Origin: an uncultured delta proteobacterium
Lineage (GTDB): Bacteria; Desulfobacterota; Binatia; UBA9968
Reading direction: 5' to 3'
DNA: 64,000 nt
NCBI GenBank assembly: GCA_963745835.1
Contig: CAVUZH010000013.1
Location: 608,001 to 672,000, forward strand
The notes under the pieces are model-generated. The model had not been told where the DNA came from and did not search any database. It saw only the letters and a program-made list of their open reading frames with translations. The translations under genes were made by a program, and so were the position numbers. Each line of letters begins with the position of its first letter. The stretch's first letter is position 1. This document shows, in pieces, positions 1 to 26,161 of this stretch.

Positions 1-707
1 TAGGCTCCATGATTAACCGAGATGATATAGGCACAATTTTCGTAAGCGCGAGTCCGGCGCGAACACTCCCAGGCATCACGGTGCGGTCCATAAGGCTCGC
101 CCGTGGGATAAATCAAAACTTCAGCGCCTTTAAGCGCCAGCGCGCGCGCTACCTCGGGAAAATTCATGTCGTAACAGAGAAGACAGCCGAGCTTGCCGAT
201 GGGCGTATCCACTACCGGGAACAGACCGTCCTCGCCGTACTTTCCCACGTAGTCGGCGTGGCATCCGGACGGCGTAGAGTAGGTCGTATGGCCTTGAACG
301 TCGGCGCCGTTGTGCTTCCGATACCGCAGGATCACGTCACCGCTGGGCCCGATAATGAAAGCGCTGTTGAACCAGCGGTTGGGCCATTCAGGGTCGTATT
401 CCATGGTGCCGCCGGCGATGTACATCTTAAACTGTTGCGCCGCCTTACCTAGAGCGTCGGTCTCGGGACCGGGAATGCGAACGCCCACCTTGGTCCATTG
501 CTCGATGGTGCGGTGCAGATGATCCGCGCCTGTAAGATAGAATTCAGGCAACACGACCAGCTTCGGCTGACCGAAGCGAATCGAGGCGTATTCCATCAGC
601 GAGATGCTGCGATACAAATTCTCACGTATCGTTTCATCCCTAGTTGCAGGATCCCGCACCTGTCGTATGCTCGTCTGAATGCACGCGACGTTATATGGTT
701 CAATCAT
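1..707 (-). CDS. Carbon-nitrogen hydrolase (nitrilase superfamily), 3' end runs off the window
   Basis: Not in the ORF track (no stop in window). Manual translation from ATG at 707 gives MIEPYNVACIQT...VVLPEF...RYRKHN...LLCYDMNFPE...RAYEN, i.e. the Glu-Lys-Cys triad motifs. SD AAGGAG upstream. Confidence 0.9.
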   Translation of the reverse strand, partial: MIEPYNVACIQTSIRQVRDPATRDETIRENLYRSISLMEYASIRFGQPKLVVLPEFYLTGADHLHRTIEQWTKVGVRIPGPETDALGKAAQQFKMYIAGGTMEYDPEWPNRWFNSAFIIGPSGDVILRYRKHNGADVQGHTTYSTPSGCHADYVGKYGEDGLFPVVDTPIGKLGCLLCYDMNFPEVARALALKGAEVLIYPTGEPYGPHRDAWECSRRTRAYENCAYIISVNHGA

Positions 708-4939: not shown

Positions 4940-6297
4940 ATGACGGATCACGCTGATGCGTTCGTCGCCACAATCGAAGCAAGGGTGAGCGACATCCTTG
5001 ACCGCTGCACCCGTTGTGGAAAATGCGTCGAGGTCTGCCCGACCGCGGGACCTGCGGGGATTGATACCAGCGAGCCCGCCGCGATCGTCGGCGATGTGCT
5101 GGATATCCTGCGCGGCGGGGGTGATCGATCAAGCCGCGGCGCGCGTTGGGCAAACGCATGCACCGGCTCCGGCCGTTGTATTTCCGCCTGCGACGACGGC
5201 ATTAACCCACGTTTCATGCTGGCAGCGACCCGTCTCAGGCTCAACGAGCGGCGGCAAGCGGACGAACGGCGCGCCACCGGTCGCGCCGGATTTAAAAAAA
5301 TGTCCACAGCAGTGAAAGTGCTCTCACGTCTTCAGCTTCCCGCCGATCTGCTCGCTGGCCTCACGCGAGCGCCCGACGGCGACTCCGAGCCCGCCCGGAT
5401 ATCGTCATGTATCTCGGTTGCAACGTTCTCAAGACCCCTCACATCGCGCTTTTGTGTCTCGAAGTCCTGGCTCGTCTCGGCACGCGCTACAAAGTCTTTG
5501 CAGGCCCGGCCTATTGTTGCGGCGTGATTCAGTACCGCGCCGGCGACACCAAAACATCCGGACGAATTGGCGGCAATACGGTGGCCGGGTTCGCCGGCAC
5601 CGGCGCTCCACGCGTGCTCACGTGGTGCCCGACCTGCAACATCCAACTAAGCGAGATCGTCATGCCGAGCACCGACGCAAGCTTCAATCTTGAGCACGTC
5701 GTGCCGTACATCGCAGCACGCATCGAATTGCTCCGCCCCCACTTCATCCATTCGATCAACAAGCGGATCGCATTGCATGAGCATCCGGGCGTGGCCGGCG
5801 TGACCGAAGGCGCCATTAAAATTCTCACGGCAATCCCCGGTTTGGAACTGGTCGACCTTGAACAACCTCGGGTCGGCTATATGTGCAACTCGCTTGCGCC
5901 CGTGCCGGCGTACAAACGCGAACTTCACGCCCGTGAGCTCGATGCCGCGACAGCCGCCGGCGTCGACTACCTCGTGGGAATCTACCATGCCTGTCATCGC
6001 GAACTATGCGCTCACGAAAGCACTTCGCCGTTCAAGGTCGTCAACTTTCTAGAACTGGTCGGCGAGGCCATGGGCATCAAAAAAGCCGATCTGTTCAAGC
6101 AATGGAAGATGATGCAAGACGTCGATCGCGTTCTGGCCGAAGTGGCCAAGCAGGCAACGGATGCGGGGCTAGACTTGGAAAACGTCCGCGAAGTACTGGT
6201 TGCCCATATGTTGGGCGAGCAGCCTCTACCGATCGGTTTCCGTGACACGCCAGCGATTGACTCCGCGAATGCGCCGGTTCGGGTGATCTCGGAGTAG
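4940..6297 (+). CDS. (Fe-S)-binding protein: 4Fe-4S dicluster + CCG domains (GlpC/HdrD-like), split by a frameshift near 5395
   Basis: N-part has CTRCGKCVEVCP and CTGSGRCISAC; C-part (5407-6297) has YLGC, YCCG, TWCPTC, YHAC. Adding one C in gcccgcccggat gives continuous ...SEPAPDIVMYLGC. SD GGGAG before ATG 4940. Confidence 0.8.
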
Positions 6298-8096: not shown

Positions 8097-8225
8097 GGGT
8101 CTACTCTTGAATCTTGACGTTTTTTAATTGCTCATGTTGTCAGTTCCTCGAAGTTTCGAATTCAACTCCACTACCTCTTGCTCGCGATCGCCACGCCGTC
8201 GCGCAGCTTGGCCCAGGCGATTTGC
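8097..8225 (-). repeat. Dispersed repeat, likely 3' end relic of a Y1-transposase element; related copies at about 12805-12985, 46380-46511 and 48630-48720
   Basis: Core ctcgcgatcgccacgccg..cgcagcttgg..caggcgattt at 8181, 12930 and 46456. ctcttgaatcttgac at about 8105 and 48641. The minus strand ends ...tcaagattcaagagtagaccc, like Y1 element termini. Confidence 0.55.
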
Positions 8226-8361
8226 GGATGGACGCGCGCTGCGGGAAAGCGCTTGTTTCGCCGTGGCGGTTGGAATAGATTGCCCGATAGCTTGCAACCA
8301 ATGTCGCGCATACGGCGACTTTCCCGATTAATCCGTTGGACGATAAATTAAGGAGACTGCC

Positions 8362-21255: not shown

Positions 21256-21747
21256 ATGGCCAAAGAGACTAAGTCGGCGGTGACAATGAGGGTTCGGGTT
21301 GGTGACAGCGAATTGGAAGTAAGTGGGCCAAAAGAGTTTGTCGAGGAAAAGATTGACGAATTCTTGAAAAAGTCTCGACAGACGGTCGTGACCCCTTCCC
21401 ACCAGCATTCGACGTCGCTCGCCGAATCAGTCGAGACCACGGTAAGGAAGATGTCACTGGCTCAATTTTTTAAGAAAACTAGCCCGCAAACAGACAATGA
21501 TCGTGTTCTTTTGGCCGCATATTTTAGAGAAAAAATGCAAAATGCTGAGAATTCCACAGCGGCTGAGATTCGAGACATGATTAGAGATGCGAAGCGCCCT
21601 CCGCCGAAGAATACGAGCGATGCAGTAAATCAAAATATAAAAAAGGGCCTGCTTATGGCGGCTGGTGACCGCGACAACAAGATGGCGTTTGTTGTAACTA
21701 CGGATGGTGAGGAATCAGTCGCTGAAATGCTTGAATCCACAAAATAG
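21256..21747 (+). CDS. Hypothetical protein: small N-terminal domain + C-terminal winged-helix-like domain
   Basis: SD GAGGAG. RVGDSELEVSGPKEFVEE N-domain; SLAQFF...LLAAYF...TAAEIRD...NTSDAVNQNIKKGLL...FVVTTDGEE wHTH-like pattern. Confidence 0.7.
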   Translation: MAKETKSAVTMRVRVGDSELEVSGPKEFVEEKIDEFLKKSRQTVVTPSHQHSTSLAESVETTVRKMSLAQFFKKTSPQTDNDRVLLAAYFREKMQNAENSTAAEIRDMIRDAKRPPPKNTSDAVNQNIKKGLLMAAGDRDNKMAFVVTTDGEESVAEMLESTK

Positions 21748-21753
21748 CTGCTT

Positions 21754-22599
21754 GTGGACGCCTCTGCTTTCGATCCTTTCAGATCTGAACTGCGAGCGCT
21801 TAGTCAGGCCGTTGCCAGCCTGGAACCCAAAACCATACGCAACGTAGACCTTCGCGAACGATTCCGAACGGTCTTTCGTGTTTGGATTACTAACGTCGAG
21901 CCGGGCTTACGAACGACTGTTTCAAATACGCGCGACCTAGTCAAACTGTCGGCAGAACTTGAAAGACTAGCTCAGCTCACATCAAAAATTAAGCCGGTCT
22001 CTGAATATCGAAAGCGATTGCGGCGAGCGATCGAACTGGCCGACGGGTTAGTGCTTTATTTACCCGCGAGCGGTGACACTAAACACCCAACGATTGGGCC
22101 ACGCCATGAGCTGTTTATTCCAAGTATTCCGGATCTGCCGCTGAGTTTAGTCCCAAATCCGATCGTCGGGTGGCGAAGTAAGTTGGAAACGTTTTTGAGG
22201 GAGCACCCCTTTGAGAAATCCGTCTTCATCATGATCCGCTACCGTAAGCGCAATGCTTCTTTGATAAAGGCTGTAAAAAACATCCTGCGAGAGCACGATC
22301 TGTTCGGCGTTCTTGCGTCAGATCACACGTTAACAGATGATCTTTACAATCCAATTGCGTGCCTACTTTGTTGCGCTCGTGGAATTGCCATTTTTGATCA
22401 AGGTGAGACCGATCAGCAGTTCAATCCGAATGTGGCGTACGAATTGGGGATGCTGCACTTGCTCAGTCGACCTTGTTTGATTTTGAAGCATAGGAGTCTG
22501 CAAAGCCTTCAAACGGACATTCTAATGAAGCTATACCAGCCTTATGCGACATTAAAGGAAGCTGCAAATTTTGTTTCCAAGTGGTCACAGCCCGATTGA
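21754..22599 (+). CDS. Hypothetical protein with C-terminal nucleoside 2-deoxyribosyltransferase/TIR-like domain
   Basis: SVFIMIRY beta-1, GIAIFD, NPNVAYELG (catalytic-Glu motif), PCLILK, LQTDI; 6 bp after the upstream gene. Confidence 0.72.
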   Translation: MDASAFDPFRSELRALSQAVASLEPKTIRNVDLRERFRTVFRVWITNVEPGLRTTVSNTRDLVKLSAELERLAQLTSKIKPVSEYRKRLRRAIELADGLVLYLPASGDTKHPTIGPRHELFIPSIPDLPLSLVPNPIVGWRSKLETFLREHPFEKSVFIMIRYRKRNASLIKAVKNILREHDLFGVLASDHTLTDDLYNPIACLLCCARGIAIFDQGETDQQFNPNVAYELGMLHLLSRPCLILKHRSLQSLQTDILMKLYQPYATLKEAANFVSKWSQPD

Positions 22600-22781: not shown

Positions 22782-22838
22782 GTGGGATATGGGATATTAT
22801 GGGATATGGGATATTAGGGACGTGGGATATTAGGGACG
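22782..22838 (+). repeat. Tandem truncated reiterations of the transposon left-end junction (gggatat...)
   Basis: gtgggatat gggatattat gggatat gggatattagggac gtgggatattagggacgctg: five nested copies of the same start. Confidence 0.85.
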
Positions 22839-23882
22839 CTGTTGACTAACTGGACAAACTAGAATAGAGAGGGAGAGAATCGATAAGGGCTACACCGTAT
22901 GCCGAGGCAGGCTAGACTGGATAGTCCCGGGACACTGCACCATGTAATGATCCGAGGGATTGAAAAGAAGCGGATCGTCGTTGACGAGCAAGACCGAAAA
23001 GACTTTGTGCGCCGATTGGGTTTATTGGCCGTGGAAACGAAGACGGCGGTCTATGCATGGGCGTTGATGAGTAACCATGCTCATTTGCTGGTTTGCAGCG
23101 GGACTGCGGGGTTAGCCAAGTTTATGCGGCGATTTTTGACCGGTTACGCGGTGAGTTACAACCTGCGCCATCGCCGCCAGGGTCATCTTTTTCAGAACCG
23201 TTACAAATCGATGGTGTGCGACGGCGACAGCTATTTCACCGAGCTGGTGCGCTACATCCACTTAAATCCGTTAAGAGTGGAGTTGGTAAAGGATTTGAGG
23301 CAACTGGAGAGATATCCCTATTGTGGACATGGAACAATCTTGGGAGCGCAATCAAACGCCTGGCAAGACCGCGACAGCGTGTTGGCCCAATTTAGCCAAC
23401 GCGAAGCGGAAGCGAAGGAGGCATACCGGCGCTATATTGCCGAAGGAGTCGTGCTGGGGCGGCGGCCGGAGCTGGTTGGGGGGAGTGGATCGGTTGGCGA
23501 ATGGTTTGCGGTGAAATCCCAGCGGCGACGCAGGATTGAAGAGTCAACTGATGAGCGGATTTTGGGCAGCGGAGCATTCGTAAAGCGTGTTCTAAAAGAA
23601 GCAGATGCGCGGACACTCCGGCAAAACGCCTTCAAGAAAACCAAACGCTATGCGGAGCGTGTCGTTGCCGCGACCTGCAAGAAAGACGGCATATCGCTAA
23701 CAGAACTCCGAAGCGGGAGCCGCCGTGGGAAACTGCCCGCCGTGAGAGTGAAGATCGTTCAGGGGCTTGTGGAGGATTATGGCGTGCCGATCGCCGAGGT
23801 CGCTCGCCAAGTGGGTATCTCGACATCTGGAGTTTCAAAGATTCTGACACGAAGTTTGTCCAGCTAGTCAACAGCGTCCCTA
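22831..23882 (+). mobile_element. Y1/HUH transposase element bounded by 30-bp inverted repeats
   Basis: Left tagggacgctgttgactaactggacaaact (22831-22860); right agtttgtccagctagtcaacagcgtcccta (23853-23882); 29 of 30 complementary. The right repeat overlaps the stop codon. Confidence 0.85.
22899..23867 (+). CDS. REP-associated-type tyrosine transposase (Y1_Tnp, HUH) with C-terminal HTH
   Basis: HHVMIRG, MSNHAHLL (HUH), LFQNRYKS, YIHLNP (catalytic Tyr), C-terminal IAEVARQVGISTSGVSKIL HTH; intact ORF. Confidence 0.93.
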   Translation: MPRQARLDSPGTLHHVMIRGIEKKRIVVDEQDRKDFVRRLGLLAVETKTAVYAWALMSNHAHLLVCSGTAGLAKFMRRFLTGYAVSYNLRHRRQGHLFQNRYKSMVCDGDSYFTELVRYIHLNPLRVELVKDLRQLERYPYCGHGTILGAQSNAWQDRDSVLAQFSQREAEAKEAYRRYIAEGVVLGRRPELVGGSGSVGEWFAVKSQRRRRIEESTDERILGSGAFVKRVLKEADARTLRQNAFKKTKRYAERVVAATCKKDGISLTELRSGSRRGKLPAVRVKIVQGLVEDYGVPIAEVARQVGISTSGVSKILTRSLSS

Positions 23883-24115: not shown

Positions 24116-24622
24116 ATGACACACACGATCGAAGCGCATCCGCTGCCGGCTCCAACGCGCGCGCCGGTGTTCAAGGGCATCACACTTGCCGTTCTCCTCG
24201 TCGTGATCGCCGGCTGCGCCACTGGCGACGTCGGGACCAAGACGGCGGTCGGGGGACTGGGCGGGGCAGCGCTCGGTGGCCTCATCGCGAGCGCCGCAGG
24301 AGGCGGGGGTACGGCCATCGCCGCGGGCGTGGTCGGAGGCGCCCTGGTCGGTGGGCTCGTGGGCAGCATGCTCGACGAGCGAGACAAGCGTATGGTGGCG
24401 GAAAGCCAAAAACGCGCGCTGGAAACGACCCCGTCGGGCCAGAGCGTGGCGTGGAACAACCCCGACAGCGGTCGTTCCGGCTCCGTGACACCCATCCGAA
24501 CGTATCAGTCCGGCGGGACCTACTGCCGCGAGTATCAACAGACCGTGACCATTGGGGGCAAGCAGGAACAGTCGTACGGGACGGCGTGCCGTCAGCCCGA
24601 TGGCAGCTGGAAGGTGGGCTGA
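24116..24622 (+). CDS. Glycine-zipper lipoprotein, RT0821/Lpp0805 (17-kDa surface antigen) family
   Basis: IAGC lipobox, GxxxG zipper, [31 protein letters not shown]. Confidence 0.9.
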
Positions 24623-24623
24623 G

Positions 24624-25049
24624 ATGGTCCGCCGACTCGTGCCCGGGGCGCGTCCCTGGTGGTGGCCGAGCCTCGCCGTCCTCTCCCTGGTCGTCATGGC
24701 CGCGTTCTCGGCGTCCGCCCAGGCGCCCGGGCCATCCGACTTGGGCCAGATCTTCAAGGACCATGATCGGAACAGCGACCGCACGCTCGACCGGGAGGAG
24801 TTTCACCTCATGATCGTCGAGGCGTTCTTCTTTCGCGATCGCGACAAGGACGGCTACCTGGTCATCGTGGAGCTGACCGAGCTGAGCGCCGAAGGCTTCC
24901 GAGCGGCCGACCGGGATGGTGACGGCCGGCTCTCCCTGCAAGAATATGGTAACGCACTCTTCAAGGATTTCGATTCCGCCGATCGCGATACGGACGGCGT
25001 GCTCACCTACGAGGAGATCGAGATCTACATCCGCACCACGCGCCGCTGA
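24624..25049 (+). CDS. Secreted EF-hand protein
   Basis: Signal peptide then four DxDxDGxLxxxE-like loops ([44 protein letters not shown]). Confidence 0.85.
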
Positions 25050-25084
25050 GGGCACCCGCCGAGAACTGCTTCCCAAGAGACCAA

Positions 25085-25710
25085 ACAAGCTCAGGGGCCC
25101 AGGCGACAGCGGCAAGACGGGATCTTTGCGATCCAATGCTTGAATCGCGGTTTTCTCATCGACAGAGAATATTGCCGCGTGTTGAGGAGGATTCAAATAC
25201 AACCGATAATGTCGGCGCCTTGCTCTCAAAATCAGCATCCTGGCTTGCCATGTAACGCTCAAGGCGATGCGGTTTGAGCCGTGCTTGGTCCACACCGCGC
25301 AACGCTCATGTGCGAAACATCACCGAATTGAGCCGACAGCTTGCGACTGCTCCAGTGAGTAGAGCCATCCACGGGCTTTCTCTGGGTGGTCCATTTAAGA
25401 ATGCGGGCCTCCTGGTCGTTCGCTGCCACGGCGGCGCTCGGCCTGCATGGCGCGAGTAAAGTCCGGCCAAGCGCTCAGCAACAAATCGGCTCTTCCACGA
25501 GCGATGAAATTGGTGTCGCAGTCCAGTTTCTCGCGAATCGAGCCGTAACGCTCGCCATCGGCGAGCAACAAGATCAACCGCGCCCGTCGGGCTTGCGCAG
25601 CATCGCGCGATTGACCTCGCTACCCATCGATTCAATTCTTGTCGCTCGCTCGTTTCAATGTGATTTTATCCATCAAAGCTTAGACGCTTTTCATGGTTAC
25701 AATTCACTAG
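25085..25710 (-). mobile_element. Degraded IS630-family element
   Basis: [35 protein letters not shown] (first D of the DDE triad), ILLLADGERYGSIREKLDC N-terminal HTH, LAGLYSRHAGR. Many frameshifts; probable end ...ggttacaattcactag at 25710. Confidence 0.85.
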
Positions 25711-25904: not shown

Positions 25905-26088
25905 GGGGTTAGCTCTTGGGGTGCCACATCAGTGCTGATAAAAAACATTCTACCTATAGCACGACCCTCCGACTTGAATTTGCCGGTGCCATCTACCATC
26001 TGACCGGCGGGCAACGCACGCCAGAAATTGTTTTTTACTGATGCCGACCGAGAGCTATTTCTGAGTACTCTAGCCGCGGTTGTCAGGT
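25905..26088 (+). pseudogene. Left end + 5' relic of a Y1/HUH transposase
   Basis: ggggttagctcttggggtgccacat end motif, then (M)ARP.RLEFAGAIYHLT..GNARQKLFFTDADRELFLSTL with frameshifts. Confidence 0.75.
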
Positions 26089-26161
26089 GCGCGGCGGCTC
26101 ATTTCGGATGGCAGCAAATGATGTTGTTATTTTCAATATCTGACAAAGATGCGATAAATGT

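Follow-up and report, generated by a model that had tools for sequence, protein, structure and literature searches.

RAYT-like genes (RAYTs are tyrosine transposases associated with REPs, the extragenic palindromes of repetitive kind) that are flanked by long inverted repeats have been described as TIRYTs, and the units formed by gene and repeats as TIRtrons (Di Nocera, De Gregorio, and Rocco 2013, BMC Genomics 14:522). According to the same article, some of the terminal inverted repeats (TIRs) share the tip motif GGGGWSAS, the repeats may overlap the 3' end of the gene ("3'ov"), and extra repeats are found singly or paired. Here, one such element is described from a stretch of 64,000 nucleotides (nt), hereafter the window, of contig CAVUZH010000013.1 (positions 608,001-672,000, forward strand; GenBank assembly GCA_963745835.1) of an uncultured delta proteobacterium (Binatia). 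Positions 22833-23880 of the window are an intact TIRtron copy of about 1.05 kb that resembles an insertion sequence (IS) and carries one TIRYT gene. The element itself belongs to a known type; added here is a family-wide stutter of the ends, i.e., short tandem copies of the sequence at the junction of element and flank.

Most TIRYTs have been placed in subclass 2.1 of the TnpA-Y1 transposases, which was equated with RAYT Group 1 (Quentin, Siguier, Chandler, and Fichant 2018, BMC Genomics 19:475). This subclass is the second-largest group of Y1 HUH proteins and is present in 14.9% of strains; its members are long proteins whose C-terminus matches Bac_DnaA_C, HTH_23 or HTH_28, and REP hairpins are absent from their vicinity (Quentin 2018). 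Among the RAYT groups, Group 1 ranks second in near-identical duplicates (6.3%) after Group 6 (30%), is one of only two groups on plasmids (1.2% of its members), and is named together with Group 6 as the most IS-like (Bertels 2017). TIRYT/TIRtron and TnpA-Y1 subclass 2.1 are one element type, described from sequence only; an earlier annotation of the window made without database searches (the sequence-only reading) had correctly stated that Y1 subgroups with a helix-turn-helix (HTH) domain and inverted repeats had been noted bioinformatically.

In the text of Di Nocera et al. available to us, the words "duplication" and "target site" occur 0 times, so that end stutter, absence of target-site duplications (TSDs), and exact boundaries are not described there; "tandem" likewise occurs 0 times in the available text of Quentin et al. 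No literature description of end stutter was found for TIRYT/TIRtron, subclass 2.1 or HUH ends in a search that covered part of the literature and the papers without their supplements; in the same search, the articles of Di Nocera et al. and Quentin et al. were the only ones to turn up on TIRYTs or TIRtrons.

Results

Ends of the element in the window

Repeat search and mismatch search both gave two arms of 30 nt, complementary at 29/30 positions; 100 shuffles gave zero matches to this inverted repeat, and no further repeat copies, second element copies or solo repeats were found within the 64-kb window. TIR length is 28-30 bp, the tip reads GGG(G)ACGYTGTTGAC, and the repeats contain two 9-bp subrepeats, which in the left arm are tgactaact (22843-22851) and ggacaaact (22852-22860), adjacent to each other and with 7/9 bases in common. 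At the tip, the window has TAGGGACGC and the family TAGGGGACGT, with 6/8 positions in agreement with GGGGWSAS. The stop codon TAG (23865-23867) falls within the right arm, which therefore encodes the last four residues of the protein. The sequence-only reading had reported the 29/30 inverted repeat around an intact gene, the overlap of the right repeat with the stop codon, and the two similar 9-mers within the repeat; all three are confirmed, the open reading frame (ORF) being intact. Coordinates of the features are given in Table 1.

Just outside the left arm, five nested copies of the junction span 22783-22838. In order, the units are TGGGATA (22783-22789), TGGGATATTA (22790-22799), TGGGATA (22800-22806), and TGGGATATTAGGGACG (22807-22822); from 22823 onward TGGGATATTA runs into GGGACGCTG..., this last piece of the tract reading TGGGATATTAGGGACGCTG... 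The T of TGGGATA is the outer start of every unit, and inward the units extend to -3, 0, -3, and +6, counted from the tip. Tandem Repeats Finder reports a period of 16, 3.2 copies, and 91% matches (score 83) for the tract, a repeat search finds a 17-nt unit twice at 100% with a third copy at 82%, and the word TGGGATAT occurs eight times in the window versus 0.99 expected, with 5/8 occurrences inside the tract. The nested junction copies noted outside the left repeat in the sequence-only reading are confirmed.

Table 1 Features of the element in the window and of related loci (L numbers). TIR, terminal inverted repeat; HTH, helix-turn-helix; MITE, transposable element of miniature size with inverted repeats.
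Feature	Sequence	Position	Strand	Remarks
Stutter array	Window	22783-22832	+	Four units, then genuine flank TGGGATATTA (22823-22832)
Left TIR	Window	22831-22860	+	Tip core GGGACGCTGTTGAC at 22833-22846; tandem 9-mers are candidate HTH sites
Candidate inward promoter	Window	22842-22880	+	TTGACT 22842-22847 at the family-conserved TTGAC position
TIRYT gene	Window	22899-23867	+	322 aa, open reading frame intact
RAYT-like HUH/Y1 domain	Window	Residues ~1-190		Followed by linker, long helix 225-262, and C-terminal HTH
Three-helix DNA-binding domain (predicted)	Window	23694-23864	+	Residues ~266-322, DnaA domain IV-like
Right TIR	Window	23853-23882	-	Covers last four codons and stop; without stutter outside
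Host DNA beside element	Window			...acgcgaacgcg on one side, gctcactcaatt on the other
MITE-like derivative	L009	2914-3176
MITE-like derivative	L041	1685-1972
MITE-like derivative	L064	1506-1693
MITE-like derivative	L047	3959-4239
Larger duplication	L017			Period 84, edge 12 nt
Larger duplication	L036			Period 713, edge 12 nt
Larger duplication	L074			Period 84, edge 4 nt

Related loci

A genome scan provided 80 loci out of at least 596 confirmed stretches, mostly from metagenome-assembled genomes (MAGs) of Binatia, Desulfobacterota, Methylomirabilota, and Nitrospirota. At the protein level, at least 7994 clusters of a 90%-identity set matched (7994/8000 candidates scored), as did 937 representatives of a 50%-identity set at E <= 1e-30; the closest relatives are 96-85% identical. 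The plasmid collection contained distant relatives only (<=37% identity), none of them spanning 80% of the protein.

An inverted repeat scoring >=14 surrounds the gene in 56/77 loci with enough flank, 55 of them with the tip motif, versus 0/72 mismatched control pairs; repeats are general among homologues. The conserved tip is (TA)GGG(G)ACGYTGTTGAC and the consensus end is (a)TaG/GGGACGTTGTTGACtAa.TtgAC (slash, outer edge of the tip), with a median tip-to-tip length of 1066 bp; the bases just outside show a weak T-a-G preference at both ends. The ends are exact. Similarity between copies from different genomes ceases 0-5 nt from the tips (e.g., L001 and L003, 86% over 1053 bp), and one MAG has two copies (L064 and L070) that share 98.6% identity across 1065 bp and have unrelated flanks. 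Both repeats are retained in four internally deleted derivatives (187-287 bp), in two of them (L009 and L041) with the first codons of the gene fused to the last; solo ends occur as well.

No TSD accompanies the element: counts in 59 loci equal the expectation from shuffled pairs for five end definitions (offsets 0-4). The TA at the outermost position of both window arms, for which a target duplication had been suggested as one of two readings, is rejected as such because the family shows no TSD; TA is also unconserved in the nearest relatives (L001, L002, L003, and L043). Local hairpins at the ends were likewise not found, their folds being no better than shuffles (z -0.1 to -0.4), and end hairpins in the style of IS200 or REP are rejected on this ground. 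On the whole of these findings, the relatives are judged to be discrete units, mobile now or recently, and of neither the IS200/IS605 nor the REPtron type. At one locus (L031, 2-194 and 3812-4004) two right-end copies are still similar about 13 nt past the tip, either from a longer repeat in this subfamily or from some flank carried along.

Stutter in the family

Ends were anchored on GGGACG, and their junctions compared with random positions and with the other GGGAC sites of these loci. At 17/134 ends, an exact tandem duplication terminates within -6 to +30 of the junction, versus 58/3193 random positions and 11/606 other GGGAC sites. Direct repeats of >=10 nt that lie within 45 nt and touch the junction are present at 20/134 ends versus 32/3193 controls (Fisher p 1e-15). 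Stutters are general and lie far above the controls; their lack in homologues, by which the sequence-only reading would have been refuted, is not observed. With repeats of >=8 nt, left ends (16/73) and right ends (13/61) are affected alike, in 23/75 loci; solo ends stutter too (L043 2642, L066 144, L073 3717, L074 2845). Every case has its own unit sequence, and the events are therefore independent.

The duplications are tied to the tip and have a near-fixed outer edge. Their outer boundary lies 4-13 nt outside the tip, the inner one anywhere from 0 to 693 nt, with peaks at 0-3 and 6-7. Among exact duplications, the start of the innermost unit is found 7-13 nt outside the tip, and for 15/16 of those at the junction it is 7-10 nt outside; 10 of these 16 have their inner end at the tip (~1 nt), four at +5/+6, one at +2, and one at +17. 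Three tandem duplications are larger and extend 48, 74, and 693 nt inward from an outer edge that lies 4-12 nt beyond a tip. The longest (L036, 3288-4705) repeats 705 bp in tandem (99.9% identity, period 713), namely the 3' 693 bp of the element with its right tip plus 12 nt of flank; a 10-nt stutter of flank sequence and 14 nt of filler separate the copies.

At least 5 nt of the element tip are contained in 13/42 mapped fragments, and up to 18-20 nt; those copies therefore postdate insertion. The sequence-only reading had taken the stutter for tracts derived from the element end, which fails for the many units that are copies of flank only, such as the triplication without tip sequence at L021.

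The same pattern is seen at a distant TIRYT on a plasmid record of an isolate of Pseudomonas aeruginosa (L082, NZ_CP116719.1, regions 5820-5960 and 8120-8260), where the stutter GAATAAAGGGGACA/AGAATAAAGGGGACAG... is joined by a 77-nt tandem copy of the left end. Three places in this record match the protein and two are seen as transposase genes; the repeats, of 32-38 nt with the tip GGGGACAG, fit GGGGWSAS fully, and the second gene has a degenerate extra left end upstream.

The protein

The TIRYT product matches Pfam Y1_Tnp (E 5.9e-9) and scores 57.1 bits with the NCBIfam model REP_Tyr_transpos, below its cut-off of 80. H60-A-H62 and Y119-IHLNP show little or no variation across 22 close and 70 diverse relatives (H60, H62, Y119, N123, and P124 conserved, P124 invariant); the HUH codons are at 23076-23084 and that of Tyr119 at 23253-23255. 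A PDB sequence search gave no meaningful match, and a fold search was therefore used. The AlphaFold (AF2) model built from 70 sequences (pLDDT 89.5) is best matched by Escherichia coli TnpA-REP with its REP hairpin (PDB 4er8; E 8.8e-7, TMt 0.70), followed by structures of ISDra2 and IS608 TnpA. A homodimer prediction with two copies scored 0.00, which speaks neither for nor against dimerization.

The last 108 residues, modelled alone (pLDDT 86), have as best match the DNA-binding domain of DnaA on DnaA-box DNA (PDB 3pvp; TMt 0.65, rmsd 1.8 Å over 70 columns), with 1j1v, 2hcb, and 1l8q as further matches; the Foldseek E-values of these DnaA matches are weak (0.2-1.2). Pfam gives weak, sub-threshold matches only for the window HTH (residues 289-318; HTH_24 0.0012, HTH_23 0.0026), and HTH_23 in 41/50, Bac_DnaA_C in 29/50, and HTH_28 in 5/50 family C-termini. 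The C-terminal HTH resembles DnaA domain IV by predicted fold, and the earlier description of a Y1/HUH enzyme with a C-terminal HTH is upheld by this match together with the Bac_DnaA_C relatives. Recognition of the repeats by the HTH was doubted by Quentin et al., in the text available to us, since the tip is unlike a DnaA box; the inner 9-mers appear to be a better candidate site for the HTH than the tip.

Neighboring DNA

Upstream of the element, the ORFs at 21256-22599 (+; 163 and 281 aa) match no Pfam family at E <= 0.01. Downstream, frameshifted ORF pieces at 24282-25635 (-) have a weak HTH_29 match (E 0.0012) and resemble remnants of a transposase of the IS630 type; the strand opposite to them carries, in overlap, an EF-hand gene (24552-25049) and a gene for a 17-kDa-antigen-like lipoprotein (24116-24622). 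At 25961-26105 (+) are two short pieces of ORF, RLEFAGAIYHLT... and FFTDADRELFLSTL..., whose frames differ. Their resemblance to the N-terminus of another Y1/RAYT-like protein, frameshifted and truncated, is weakly supported: BLASTP to the TIRYT gives E 0.11 at the matching position, there is no family match, and no tip motif was found beside them. The heptamer GGGGACG of the family-consensus tip occurs once in the 64-kb window versus 9.15 +/- 3.25 in shuffles (100/100 shuffles had at least one); the host genome may be depleted of this motif, or composition may account for the difference.

Discussion

Proposed origin of the stutter

Taken as a whole, the locus is best explained by an intact TIRtron whose HTH docks the Y1 domain and whose tip is accompanied by a recurrent break that makes the stutter; we put somewhat better than even confidence in this explanation. 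The DnaA-IV-like HTH would bind the 9-mers on duplex DNA and position the Y1 domain at the tip, and a strand break would recur beside the bound end, 4-13 nt and mostly 7-10 nt outside the tip. DNA synthesis would begin from the break or run off at it, and rejoining might proceed between the Tyr-linked 5' end and the extended 3' end, by fill-in of staggered nicks, or by run-off with template switching. Each event would copy the interval between an outer point that is fixed and an inner one that varies, and repeated events would stack nested units as at 22783-22838; once a GGGA copy lies outside the tip, ordinary slippage between GGGA repeats could enlarge the array further. In support of a recurrent break beside the tip we count that cleavage by purified RAYTs takes place at several short sites, both 5' and 3' of the structure that is recognized (Corneloup 2021).

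The enzyme may be, on this account, the author of the stutter through cycles of nicking and strand transfer, as the sequence-only reading had suggested. The most specific version of the idea is that the stutter is a natural record of enzyme chemistry, left by a Y1 HUH nuclease that a reader of DnaA-box type docks on the duplex terminal repeats and that breaks a strand time and again at a fixed point about 7-10 nt outside the tip, with abortive cycles repaired as templated tandem duplications. We offer this version tentatively, as possible rather than probable.

Several points weigh against a docked enzyme with a recurrent break. The nick, its strand, and its position are postulated, and we know of no biochemistry on any TIRYT. 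Stutter is occasional, 111/134 ends being without an exact repeat of >=8 nt; none was found at the 8 ends of the deletion derivatives, nor in the three chromosome-level MAGs and the sole isolate chromosome among the loci, and nearly all loci are metagenome-assembled. The first base or bases of the units in the 16 junction tracts are mostly G or GG, and the interval 5-16 nt outside the tip shows an enrichment of GGGA (24/122 ends versus 5.6% of controls); both would also be compatible with slipped strands that mispair between GGGA repeats. Detection limits may be responsible in part for the short periods of flank-only duplications, so that it is mainly the junction-spanning and the large cases that support a pinned outer edge.

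Two further expectations fared poorly. Covariation of the HTH with both repeat arms at first seemed specific (partial r 0.43, versus 0.18 for the catalytic domain). The right arm itself encodes the protein tail and was therefore left out; when the left arm is compared alone and that tail is removed from the HTH, the value is 0.274 for HTH and catalytic domain alike, and covariation of the repeats specifically with the HTH is not supported. The left repeat may carry the -35 of a promoter, and autoregulation would therefore be possible. Left ends keep TA 17 nt downstream of the TTGAC position, and TAnnnT is present in 15/69 left versus 2/54 right ends; the choice of a promoter scan was TGGACA-18-GAGAAT (22851-22880), at chance level with 1 match versus 0.9 expected. 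A promoter within the left arm is plausible but weak.

Other explanations

The strongest competitor dispenses with a nick: tightly bound protein, or the two repeats of one strand paired as a panhandle in the course of replication, would block the replisome at the edge of the element, and the nascent strand would slip between short GGGA repeats, with duplication of the junction as the result. Polymerase slippage at a blocked end accounts for much of the same pattern, including the G-rich unit starts and the GGGA enrichment just described, the 1-2 nt of microhomology in several duplications (periodic runs longer than the period), and the equal involvement of left and right ends; the filler DNA at L036 suggests template switching. 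It fits less well with duplications that lack microhomology, as in the window and at L072, where run length equals the period of 16, with the background rate (11/606) at GGGAC sites elsewhere in the same loci, and with the inward duplications of 74-693 nt, whose shared outer edge is poorly explained by a block at the element edge. We consider it rather unlikely.

That imprecise excision left tip fragments as footprints, followed by re-insertion at a hot spot resembling the tip itself, is improbable. Isolated tip fragments (GGGGACG) do occur 7-16 nt outside many ends, and the weak T-a-G just outside the tip hints at a target preference; yet the flank between fragments is duplicated too, often exactly (16 nt in the window, 26 nt at L030, 14 nt at L034), which would need a TSD that the family does not make, and flank-only triplications of the L021 kind hold no tip sequence.

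A domesticated, immobile RAYT-like gene with regulatory repeats, its tract being microsatellite-like or an assembly artefact, would suit the single copy in the 64-kb window, the mostly single-copy state of RAYTs (Bertels 2017), and the predominance of MAG assemblies, but is very improbable in view of ends that are exact while the flanks are unrelated, a genome with near-identical copies, deletion derivatives, contigs of <=2 kb that carry 55/120 of the closest protein clusters (count from table), a 7- to 15-fold enrichment over controls, and stutters that are shorter than assembler k-mers and present in megahit, SPAdes, and long-read contigs as well as in the isolate plasmid record. Because of the evidence listed against each, footprints, domestication, and artefact are ranked as less likely than slippage.

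Significance

The stutter is a first sequence clue to how a TIRYT enzyme handles DNA ends. Being family-wide, with a pinned outer edge at both ends and no TSD, it yields a testable prediction of the site of strand breakage. If it is a record made by the enzyme, it would map the cleavage geometry of a transposase class without known mechanism and show how a single-strand HUH enzyme works on inverted-repeat ends; if it is only slippage at a protein block, it would still be a useful marker for active ends.

Comparison with known systems

With TIRYT/TIRtron the element shares the RAYT-like Y1 protein with HUH motif and catalytic Tyr, and the long terminal inverted repeats with G-rich tip and without REP hairpins; the overlap of a repeat with the 3' end of the gene and additional repeats, single or paired, are likewise in common. 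It differs in its tip, GGG(G)ACG(C/T)T, which fits GGGGWS and not the final AS of GGGGWSAS, and in its hosts, the present clade coming from uncultured Binatia, Desulfobacterota, Methylomirabilota, and Nitrospirota. The class-2 tyrosine motif Y---NP of subclass 2.1 is found here as Y119-IHL-N123-P124, and the C-terminal HTH domains of that subclass are matched at family level.

DDE-type insertion sequences with TIRs were considered and rejected, as there is neither a DDE family match nor a TSD. IS200/IS605 transposases (TnpA of IS608 and ISDra2) have the HUH/Y1 fold and make no target duplication, as here; they are proteins of ~130-150 aa without HTH that act on subterminal hairpins, their elements lack terminal inverted repeats, and insertion is 3' of a tetra- or pentanucleotide that is fixed and borders the left end alone. 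The present element differs in having inverted repeats and no hairpins at its ends; membership is rejected on account of these repeats and of end folds at shuffle level.

The E. coli TnpA-REP/RAYT system with its REPs and bacterial interspersed mosaic elements (BIMEs) provides the best structural match of the catalytic domain (4er8), and its enzyme forms a Tyr-5'P link, leaves a free 3'-OH, transfers strands, and cuts at short sites outside the recognized structure. It differs in acting on single-stranded REP hairpins with a GTAG tag, of which there is no counterpart here, whereas the TIRYT has an additional domain predicted to bind duplex DNA. RAYT/REPtron membership is rejected, given the sub-threshold REP_Tyr_transpos score and the lack of hairpins at either end.

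For duplex binding combined with a nearby nick, the HUH initiators are the working analogy. Adeno-associated virus (AAV) Rep, at its inverted terminal repeat, and RepC of pT181 bind duplex repeats and nick nearby, and pT181 RepC overshoots the nick site by ~10 nt at termination. In the same manner, a Y1 HUH domain would be placed by duplex repeats, and nick at a fixed nearby point, with DNA synthesis by the host coupled to rejoining. These initiators differ in belonging to unrelated families and in serving replicons, not transposons; they are likened to the TIRYT only by their mode of action.

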